DNA of 55,006 bases, the filler included, from Sluysia triapertura (Eukaryota): NCBI GenBank assembly GCA_046118255.1. It is 4 parts of 4 records of this genome, joined end to end, with 100 filler letters (N's around TTAATTAATTAA, not from the genome) between each part and the next. Parts side by side here need not be neighbours in the genome. Positions count along the whole stretch, not along the records: positions 1 to 16,817 come from JBJNIA010197487.1; 3 more parts are not named here. One strand, 5' to 3'. Under the pieces are notes generated by a model that was not told the DNA's origin, searched no databases, and worked only from the letters and a program-made list of their open reading frames with translations. Below, one piece after another: positions 10,652-11,582 of the stretch (positions within the stretch are counted from its first letter, which is position 1; each line of letters begins with the position of its first letter). A program made the position numbers and the translations under genes.

Positions 10652-11582
10652 TTTAGAGATTTTTATCTTAAAAATAAAAACAGCAATGGCAATTAACAAT
10701 AAAGAAGACATGCAGCGTAGATTAAAAGCTCATATAGAATTAATAAATTTCTCTTCAAACGTGGAAACACACATTACAATAACTCCAAGAATTAATGATA
10801 AAGAAAATTTTGAAATAACTACTCTACGATTTGATGTTGTAAATGATAGCATCAGAGAACAAGTTGAATTTATAATTGATTGAGAAAATAGATGCCGAAA
10901 GATGTGACTTAAGTATTAATTCTTTATTTTTAGATGAAGATGTATTTGTTTATGAATAACTTGGTTACAGTAAAGATTTAGAAAATAATATTATCTGTTT
11001 TATTGGAATCAGTGCTAATCGAAGTCAAGAACATTATTTAAGAATTTTACGATATTTTAGATTTTCTGGAAGAATCCAATCCATGCGTTGAAGAAATTTT
11101 ATCTGATATCAAACGAAATCCCGATAGTCTAAAAATTATTATCGGTGAATATATTTTGGCAGAATTGAATAAAATTATTAAAGGTAAACACGCATGTGAT
11201 ATATTAAAGCGAATGTTTAAAGTAAATTTGTTTTCTTATATCGATTTAGTAAAAAATAATTTTTAAACTAAGAAAAAACGATTTTGTGAGTTTTATGAAA
11301 ACTTACAGAAAATTGATGCTAAAAGTGCGACGTTTGTAAATTAATTATTGATAATGAAAAGGAAGTAGAAATTATTCGCAAGCGTTTTAAGTTAAACAAT
11401 AATGACTTATTTATTATGCGTTATTGATTTGATAAATGTGATACGAAGGTGACATTGAAAAATTAACAAGATGATTTCATAATATGCGATATTAAAAAAG
11501 AATTCAACATAATCGATTGGAAATATGTCAATTCGAATCGTTGAAATTACTAGGAAGACCAGAAACAATTGATGAATGGTCT
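10652..11582 (+). pseudogene. TRNT1: Intronless decayed copy of the CCA-adding tRNA nucleotidyltransferase
   Basis: Across frameshifts: ETHITITPRINDKENFEITTLRFDV...[33 protein letters not shown]...[43 protein letters not shown]. These match animal class II CCA-enzyme motifs as I recall them ([49 protein letters not shown]). RRD and EDxxR motifs are mutated. Confidence 0.9.

Follow-up and report, generated by a model that had tools for sequence, protein, structure and literature searches.

Host-gene fragments are known to be captured and amplified by mobile elements, and the closest described cases are the LTR-mediated retrocopies of Tan et al. (2016; PMC5131818), where the copies are truncated at both ends, have no tail and have junctions common to all copies. 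Two further bodies of work bear on the locus described here: the motifs of TRNT1, a class II CCA-adding enzyme, are defined in PMC7014341, and the priming of LTR elements by tRNA and their silencing by tRNA fragments are treated in PMC7472051; LTR features were taken from PMC10886601 as well. A CCA-adding enzyme is an unusual cargo for such a carrier, and no case of it was found among the best-ranked literature matches.

In the genome of Sluysia triapertura, a decayed piece of TRNT1 follows a cluster of three hairpins and is itself followed by unrelated, gene-like sequence. Like the LTR-mediated retrocopies (and maize Bs1, cited in PMC5131818), it is an internal, intronless and tail-less piece of mRNA cut at both ends; the likeness extends to a junction common to the copies, to further amplification and, possibly, to the use of two parental genes. 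The account that we lean towards, at somewhat less than an even chance, is that a non-autonomous cassette of LTR type, now truncated, captured an internal piece of TRNT1 mRNA once and was then amplified.

Materials and methods

The window, i.e., the whole stretch of DNA analysed, comprises 55,006 nt of S. triapertura (assembly GCA_046118255.1) and consists of parts of four records joined with 100-N fillers; positions 1 to 16,817, which include the TRNT1 block, are from JBJNIA010197487.1. Its composition is that of animal-type, AT-rich DNA (about 25% GC), with spliced host genes such as the end of a SET-domain gene with a diverged Gly/Ala-rich tail at 52850-53830 (-), which we take to be EZH2-like. 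No tRNA genes were found in the window. Copies of the block were surveyed with the contigs of one DNA run, aligned to 9900-12400 at 80% likeness; this run, possibly the source of the assembly itself, is not independent of it. Summed contig depth, which overlapping contigs inflate, should not be read as copy number, and hence we speak of "tens" of copies.

Several other features of the window are recorded here for completeness. An intact, intronless ORF of 490 codons at 50070-51542 (-) matches no family in Pfam or NCBIfam and has one WD40-like stretch (E 0.0014); a second occurrence of its downstream flank (49575-50072), at 75%, lies at 44980-45511. At 18724-20328 there is an element of 1.6 kb whose inverted ends, 93 bp long, are 90% complementary, and at 15114-15299 a 36-bp tandem repeat (5.2 copies, 97% matches). 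Dispersed repeats of 365 bp form an inverted pair at 32044-32408 and 44241-44603, 75% identical, and their 77-bp core is found at 1862-1938, 24269-24370, and 43205-43281.

Results

The TRNT1 segment

The positions of all parts of the block, and of the related sequences in the window, are collected in Table 1. The stretch 10876-11088 matches human TRNT1 chains with an E value of 3e-14, 11051-11263 passes the Pfam cut-off for PolyA_pol_RNAbd (27.2 bits vs 22), and in a quick tree of 60 rows the piece falls within a starred animal clade, with a long branch for the window copy. A local frameshift-aware alignment to a profile of 41 sequences places reference residues 116-278 on 10770-11248; the forced alignment, to a profile of 40 homologues, extends this to residues 97-392 on 10710-11582, with 4 inserted and 8 deleted codons. 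Because 888 nt of the reference map onto 873 nt here, there is no room for an intron in the piece, and the intronless, frameshifted TRNT1-like sequence of the preliminary description is thus borne out.

Table 1. Parts of the TRNT1 block and related sequences in the window, by position.
Feature	Positions	Strand	Remarks
Element A, TGTGGTG...CACCACA, 1374 bp, solo-LTR-like	6460-7833	+	5-bp flanking target duplication
C/A-rich remnant of ~80-bp-type repeats, very high copy	9965-10140	+	such repeats also open three other heads; depth 5713 and 1827
ATT/AAT-rich spacer	10206-10300	+	also precedes second hairpin cluster
Hairpin H1, ~22-bp stem, 25-nt loop	10323-10391	.	z -4.8 (+), -7.5 (-); depth 1961
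Hairpin H2	10423-10482	+	z -4.6 (+), only -2.3 (-); depth 579
Hairpin H3, CCAAT/ATTGG pair in stem	10513-10575	+	z -4.9 (+)
Linker with 5' junction of TRNT1 piece (probably near 10675-10690)	10576-10709	+	motif A unrecognisable
Decayed intronless animal-type TRNT1 segment	10710-11582	+	reference residues 97-392; 4 frameshifts, 4 stops
Second, non-TRNT1 segment, GC about 0.4	11583-11830	+	weak caspase small-subunit likeness
74-bp GT...AG intron-like segment, multi-copy	11831-11904	+	depth 1632; splicing inferred
Short last exon (25 codons) with AATAAA at 11978	11905-11996	+	other copies continue differently from 11996
Head C: TG start, repeats, CTACCAC motif	21975-22745	-	intronless RING ORF follows
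Head D: TG start, repeats, ATT run, H1 paralogue	35577-36876	+	hairpin 36822-36876; before different broken ORF

The C-terminal third is weak, with a score of -50 against -109 +/- 9.5 in 25 shuffles (best -88); since it beats all 25 of them, an end at the W of 11577-11579 is supported, and the last 50-80 residues, the C-terminus, are missing. On the 5' side motif A (GGAVRD, DxD) is unrecognisable in any frame of the window copy, one contig connects 10577 to 10685, and one contig of 562 nt aligns only from 10675 onward, preceded by 358 unlike letters. The sequence had been described as lacking the N-terminus and ending near the WS motif, and this holds; it had also been said to start about 80 bp after the last hairpin, and position 10652 does lie at that distance behind H3, while homology is secure only from about 10680-10710. 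The tail reported as absent is indeed absent: no A run in 11561-12200 exceeds 6 nt, and most other copies (773 of 793 depth at 11589) do not have the A6 of the 3' junction as an unbroken run. The databases contain no close relative of the protein, with 56-60% as the best identities; a word-based search against longer proteins gave no match to the piece, and a search of viral contigs found no relative.

The window copy of TRNT1 is a dead passenger and cannot be an active enzyme: the frame is broken by frameshifts near 10884, 11089, 11340, and 11504 and by stops ending at 10959, 11266, 11427, and 11466, and the RRD and EDxxR motifs are changed. Comparison with the other copies shows from what state it came. 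Of the 40 best-supported differences (of 927 in all), 25 fall in the TRNT1 piece, and six of these are silent (19% expected, p 0.45). Among the 19 amino-acid differences with respect to the majority of copies, 14 (one of them borderline) are towards the TRNT1 profile, four are away from it and one is neutral; for random changes the share towards the profile is 20%, giving p 8e-7 for 14/19 and 7e-6 without the borderline one. Several of the frameshifts and stops are absent from many other copies. The window copy has decayed from a more TRNT1-like, more intact state.

Downstream, as first noted, the TRNT1 piece gives way to a segment whose end is a putative, presumably spliced intron. Seven of the eight PDB matches of this second segment are caspases, at an E value of 0.65 that is not significant, and Pfam gives no caspase family for it. 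The 3' junction of the TRNT1 piece is crossed by another copy (record 7, 11494-11681, with 17 differences). No joint skipping the intron-like segment is present among the 15 listed of 49. The last exon has a weak, non-significant likeness to the DOK1 PTB domain (E 0.16). Position 11996 is a loose end in nine contigs, with a drop in depth from 805 to 179, and because these nine leave the window sequence there, the window copy is cut at this point. A 14-nt stretch at 9513-9526 (+) exactly matches the run-on of other copies behind 11996, a weak match (chance mean 0.54 at one mismatch) that could hint at a tandem or LTR-like arrangement.

Hairpins

The three hairpins in front of the TRNT1 piece stand as described, each being more stable than 200/200 shuffles on +. 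Stems in the block are 13-22 bp and loops 21-32 nt long. A strict stem scan of the window finds three stems, namely H1, its paralogue at 36.7 kb, and the hairpin at 36822, compared with 0-1 in five shuffles, and only on + do all five hairpins (H1-H3 and those of the second cluster) have z values of -4.0 or lower. Further stems near the second cluster lie at 36454-36509 and 38475-38539. For the ATT/AAT-rich spacer, which precedes both hairpin clusters, an alignment of head B with D2 scores 123.5, against a best of 90 in 200 shuffles.

The hairpin stems are kept by compensatory change. In the H1 paralogue at 36709-36771, three of the 19 pairs differ from H1 on both sides, and three C-A mismatches are found on +; the H3 pair 10518/10570 is T-A in the window copy, whereas most other copies have C (526/593 depth) and G (1815/1914). 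The single mismatch of H1 is private to the window copy. G-U pairs fail as a strand marker, with H1 and its paralogue favouring -, H2 and H3 favouring +, and the H1 wobble being private.

No Rfam family reaches its cut-off on the hairpins, the best scores being 28.6 bits against 80 and 22.9 against 70, and a search of metagenome contigs with the H1 pattern gave no match. For the 36822 hairpin, identity with miR-2 was rejected, as the would-be seed is unpaired and Rfam has no match; so was a hammerhead ribozyme of a Penelope-like element, for which there is no Rfam match and, by eye, two core-like words on - without a correctly placed stem II.

Copies of the block

From the hairpins through the TRNT1 piece and the second segment to the intron-like stretch and the last exon, the sequence forms one multi-copy unit, present in tens of diverged copies, with the 3' junction of the TRNT1 piece common to other copies. 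This supports the earlier proposal of cargo in a cassette, which had overlooked that the block belongs to a repeat family. The block region is covered by 1955 contigs, of which 150 are at least 99% alike to the window, 258 are at 95-99, 590 at 90-95, and 957 below 90, i.e., 1547 of 1955 are <95% alike. From H1 to the last exon (20 bins, 10320-11999) summed depth is 289-3521 with a median of 1178, and for the TRNT1 piece (10 bins, 10740-11579) the median is 1619, compared with 14.7-19.9 for the three contigs that show no differences. As many as 50 differing contigs cover a single site. The parts are also physically joined elsewhere: in other copies the joints repeats-H1, H2-H3, and H3-TRNT1 piece are each present in one contig, and the 3' TRNT1 junction is spanned by record 7 and four joints.

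Behind the last exon summed depth falls to 179, 175, 31, and 77, the range over the neighbouring gene being 31-77. The depth cannot come from pooled species or from true TRNT1 genes, because the hairpins and intron-like stretch are as deep as the TRNT1 coding part and the neighbouring gene is shallow. That neighbour, at 12150-13720 (-), is a spliced low-depth host gene converging on the cassette. It has no firm Pfam family and, we assume, a CP110/IQ-like motif. A position of the block inside an intron of this gene is not established; a stop at about 12150 follows its frame.

Repeats and related heads

The C/A-rich repeats in front of the block recur at 6620-6900, 22220-22600 (-), and 35670-36130. 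The remnant at 9965-10140 scores 109 against head A (best of 200 block shuffles, 92.5) and 79 against head C (best 76), and a repeat profile of A and C finds it at only E 0.14. Heads A, C, and D open with the same TG-starting 14-mer, a pattern derived from these three, and are unrelated upstream. The gene-like sequence behind each head differs. Behind C is an intronless RING-finger ORF at 21105-21455 (-) (Pfam zf-RING_2, 33.2 bits), with an acceptor-like site just before its ATG; behind D and the second hairpin cluster, at 37040-38260 (+), is a broken ORF of some 400 codons, an orphan that contains intron-like stretches and for which no relative was found. The TG element of head D may extend only to 36058, which is 650 bp short of its hairpins.

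Element A has a 7-bp inverted end and contains 80-bp tandem repeats, an ATT run, a CCAAT-type hairpin at 7172-7239, a GT...AG stretch near 7461-7524, and an AATAAA. The window has two such pairs that are flanked by a duplication; with any TG word counted, one arose in each of 4/30 shuffles. Behind the repeats no significant likeness of A to the TRNT1 block was found, and homology of the 11583-11830 segment to the exon-like part of A was not detected. A and C as the two ends of a single 16-kb element were considered and dropped, the flanks having no duplication and the depth between them being low. A decayed gypsy-type pol with RT, RNase H, and integrase lies at 3241-6180 (-), has no recognised LTR pair, and is presumably of CsRN1-clade likeness. 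As to the ends of A, TGTGGYG is listed as the LTR start of the CsRN1 clade in Table 3 of PMC3601003.

The block copy itself has no TG start, no CA end, and no recognisable left end. As regards flanks of LTR sequence, the left one amounts to a weak link to a TG...CA element and the right one is truncated at 11996; around the TRNT1 block a second LTR was looked for and not found. A CA followed by TGG, as in a primer-binding site, does not occur behind the hairpins, the only one being inside the cargo at 10684, and 11900-12150 contains no polypurine tract, in what is an old and truncated copy. Inverted ends around the block were not found either, the best inverted match being AT-rich with a score of 30.

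Discussion

If, as on the favoured reading, the carrier is a derivative of an LTR-type retroelement, its reverse transcriptase would have switched once onto a co-packaged TRNT1 mRNA and then back, which would place an internal, spliced, tail-less TRNT1 piece between the hairpins and the downstream segment. Unspliced RNA could then have been the template from which the chimera was multiplied in trans. For the hairpins, the most likely role is one in the + strand RNA of the element, as packaging or leader stems or as small-RNA precursors. Template switching is a plausible capture route. Similarity in 31 partial homologues from other species repeatedly ends at residues 170-171 (5), 212 (2), 239 (2), and 277 (4), break points such as read-through into introns would be expected to give, and these may point to an RNA step; the parent TRNT1 may itself be intron-poor, which counts against one. 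For an LTR-type carrier speak the three heads with a sharp TG start and element A, which ends in the exact inverse of its start and has a 5-bp duplication. The link between these and the block, however, runs through low-complexity repeats (E 0.14), and the TG element of head D may end before its hairpins, so that repeats and hairpins may be separate things. The intron-like segment retained in the multi-copy part also counts against an LTR-type reading, and capture at the DNA level fits it about as well. Further points against are the lack, in the window copy, of a TG start, CA end, primer site, polypurine tract, and second LTR, and the likeness of A to the block being confined to the repeats.

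Such capture at the DNA level, i.e., transduplication, is the strongest competitor, though rather unlikely: a Helitron, Helentron, or Pack-type DNA transposon would have acquired an intron-poor exon of TRNT1, or else a retrocopy of older date, together with a piece of a second gene and its intron, and amplified both. It accounts for the intron-like segment kept in many copies and for the primer site and LTR pair that are not seen at the block. Tandem repeats, a microsatellite, and palindromes are known from the non-coding head of DINE-1/HINE Helentrons (PMC4067079) and are present here, Helitrons of bats capture fragments stepwise and amplify retrogenes (PMC4224331), and a hAT element of Pseudocercospora has taken histone H3 to hundreds of copies (PMC6710886). 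The hairpins, however, with stems of 13-22 bp and loops of 21-32 nt, are unlike the 5-10-bp palindromes at HINE ends, element A is flanked by a target duplication, a feature foreign to Helentrons, and around the block inverted ends were not found. The TGTNR start of Ginger would fit A, but its inverted end is 7 bp instead of 40-270 bp (PMC2836005). Slightly less probable is an expanded host gene family, in which a TRNT1-derived chimeric gene with a microRNA-like hairpin cluster spread by tandem or segmental duplication and the window member is a pseudogene. The parts follow one another on + as in a gene (hairpins, then a long exon, a GT-AG intron, the last exon, and AATAAA), which would suit it, as would five hairpins at z -4.0 or lower on +, compensatory pairs, and the absence of several breaks from other copies; against this, no Rfam family reaches cut-off, the multi-copy depth ends within about 170 bp of the low-depth neighbouring gene, an H1 head also stands before the unrelated ORF 37040-38260, and the databases hold no close protein relative (56-60% at best).

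Two further readings have little probability. Hairpin clusters, an intronless RING ORF, orphan ORFs, and a weakly caspase-like second segment could be expected of a fragment of a large, endogenised DNA virus that had captured host genes and carried a microRNA cluster, a reading that we nonetheless regard as very improbable: the segments scanned contain no viral hallmark family, the viral contigs no relative, and host genes and remnants of retrotransposons lie in between the pieces. Least probable of all is a single ordinary retrocopy, made by a LINE and inserted behind the hairpins by chance. An intronless piece cut at its 5' end would agree with it, and a remnant at 30.4-31.7 kb, without a Pfam match, is presumably a non-LTR-like RT. 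Nevertheless, the piece has neither tail nor C-terminus and exists in tens of copies with a common 3' junction; the marks of a LINE processed pseudogene, namely a poly(A) tail, the 3' end of the mRNA, and a target duplication, are not seen together here. The preliminary description had already set a LINE origin aside, and with no tail, both ends truncated, and a shared junction, a plain LINE retrocopy is largely refuted; it could survive only as a first step before amplification.

The block may have consequences beyond the locus. With tens of diverged TRNT1-like copies around, an essential gene would be prone to misannotation, and small RNAs directed against TRNT1 could arise from them; the compensated hairpins point to a cis-acting RNA. 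A more far-reaching version, which we mention as a long shot, is that some copies keep a complete, expressed TRNT1 frame: this would be an animal LTR-type element with its own CCA-adding enzyme, e.g., for restoring the CCA end of the tRNA primer, beside a conserved hairpin cluster, and the heads would be those of one family with interchangeable captured genes. Should intact copies exist, a link to the tRNA priming of LTR elements treated in PMC7472051 becomes testable.

Set against known systems, the window copy shares with the animal (alphaproteobacterial-type) class II TRNT1 of PMC7014341 residues 97-392, including the loop, RRD, and EDxxR regions and the body domain, and differs from a functional enzyme in its unrecognisable motif A, changed RRD and EDxxR, missing C-terminus, and eight breaks. 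Compared with HINE, subterminal inverted repeats were not found, the hairpins are much larger, and the related element A has its 5-bp duplication. The multiplication of a piece of a low-copy housekeeping gene into decaying copies recalls the histone H3 of PMC6710886, and that of a host gene piece by a mobile carrier recalls the Helitrons of PMC4224331; unlike in those transduplications, no transposase or Rep-helicase is seen here, and the cargo is a piece of a CCA-adding enzyme. From the LTR-mediated retrocopies, finally, the block is set apart by a copy number that seems higher, in the tens, by the intron-like segment that it retains, and by the cluster of long-loop hairpins in front.
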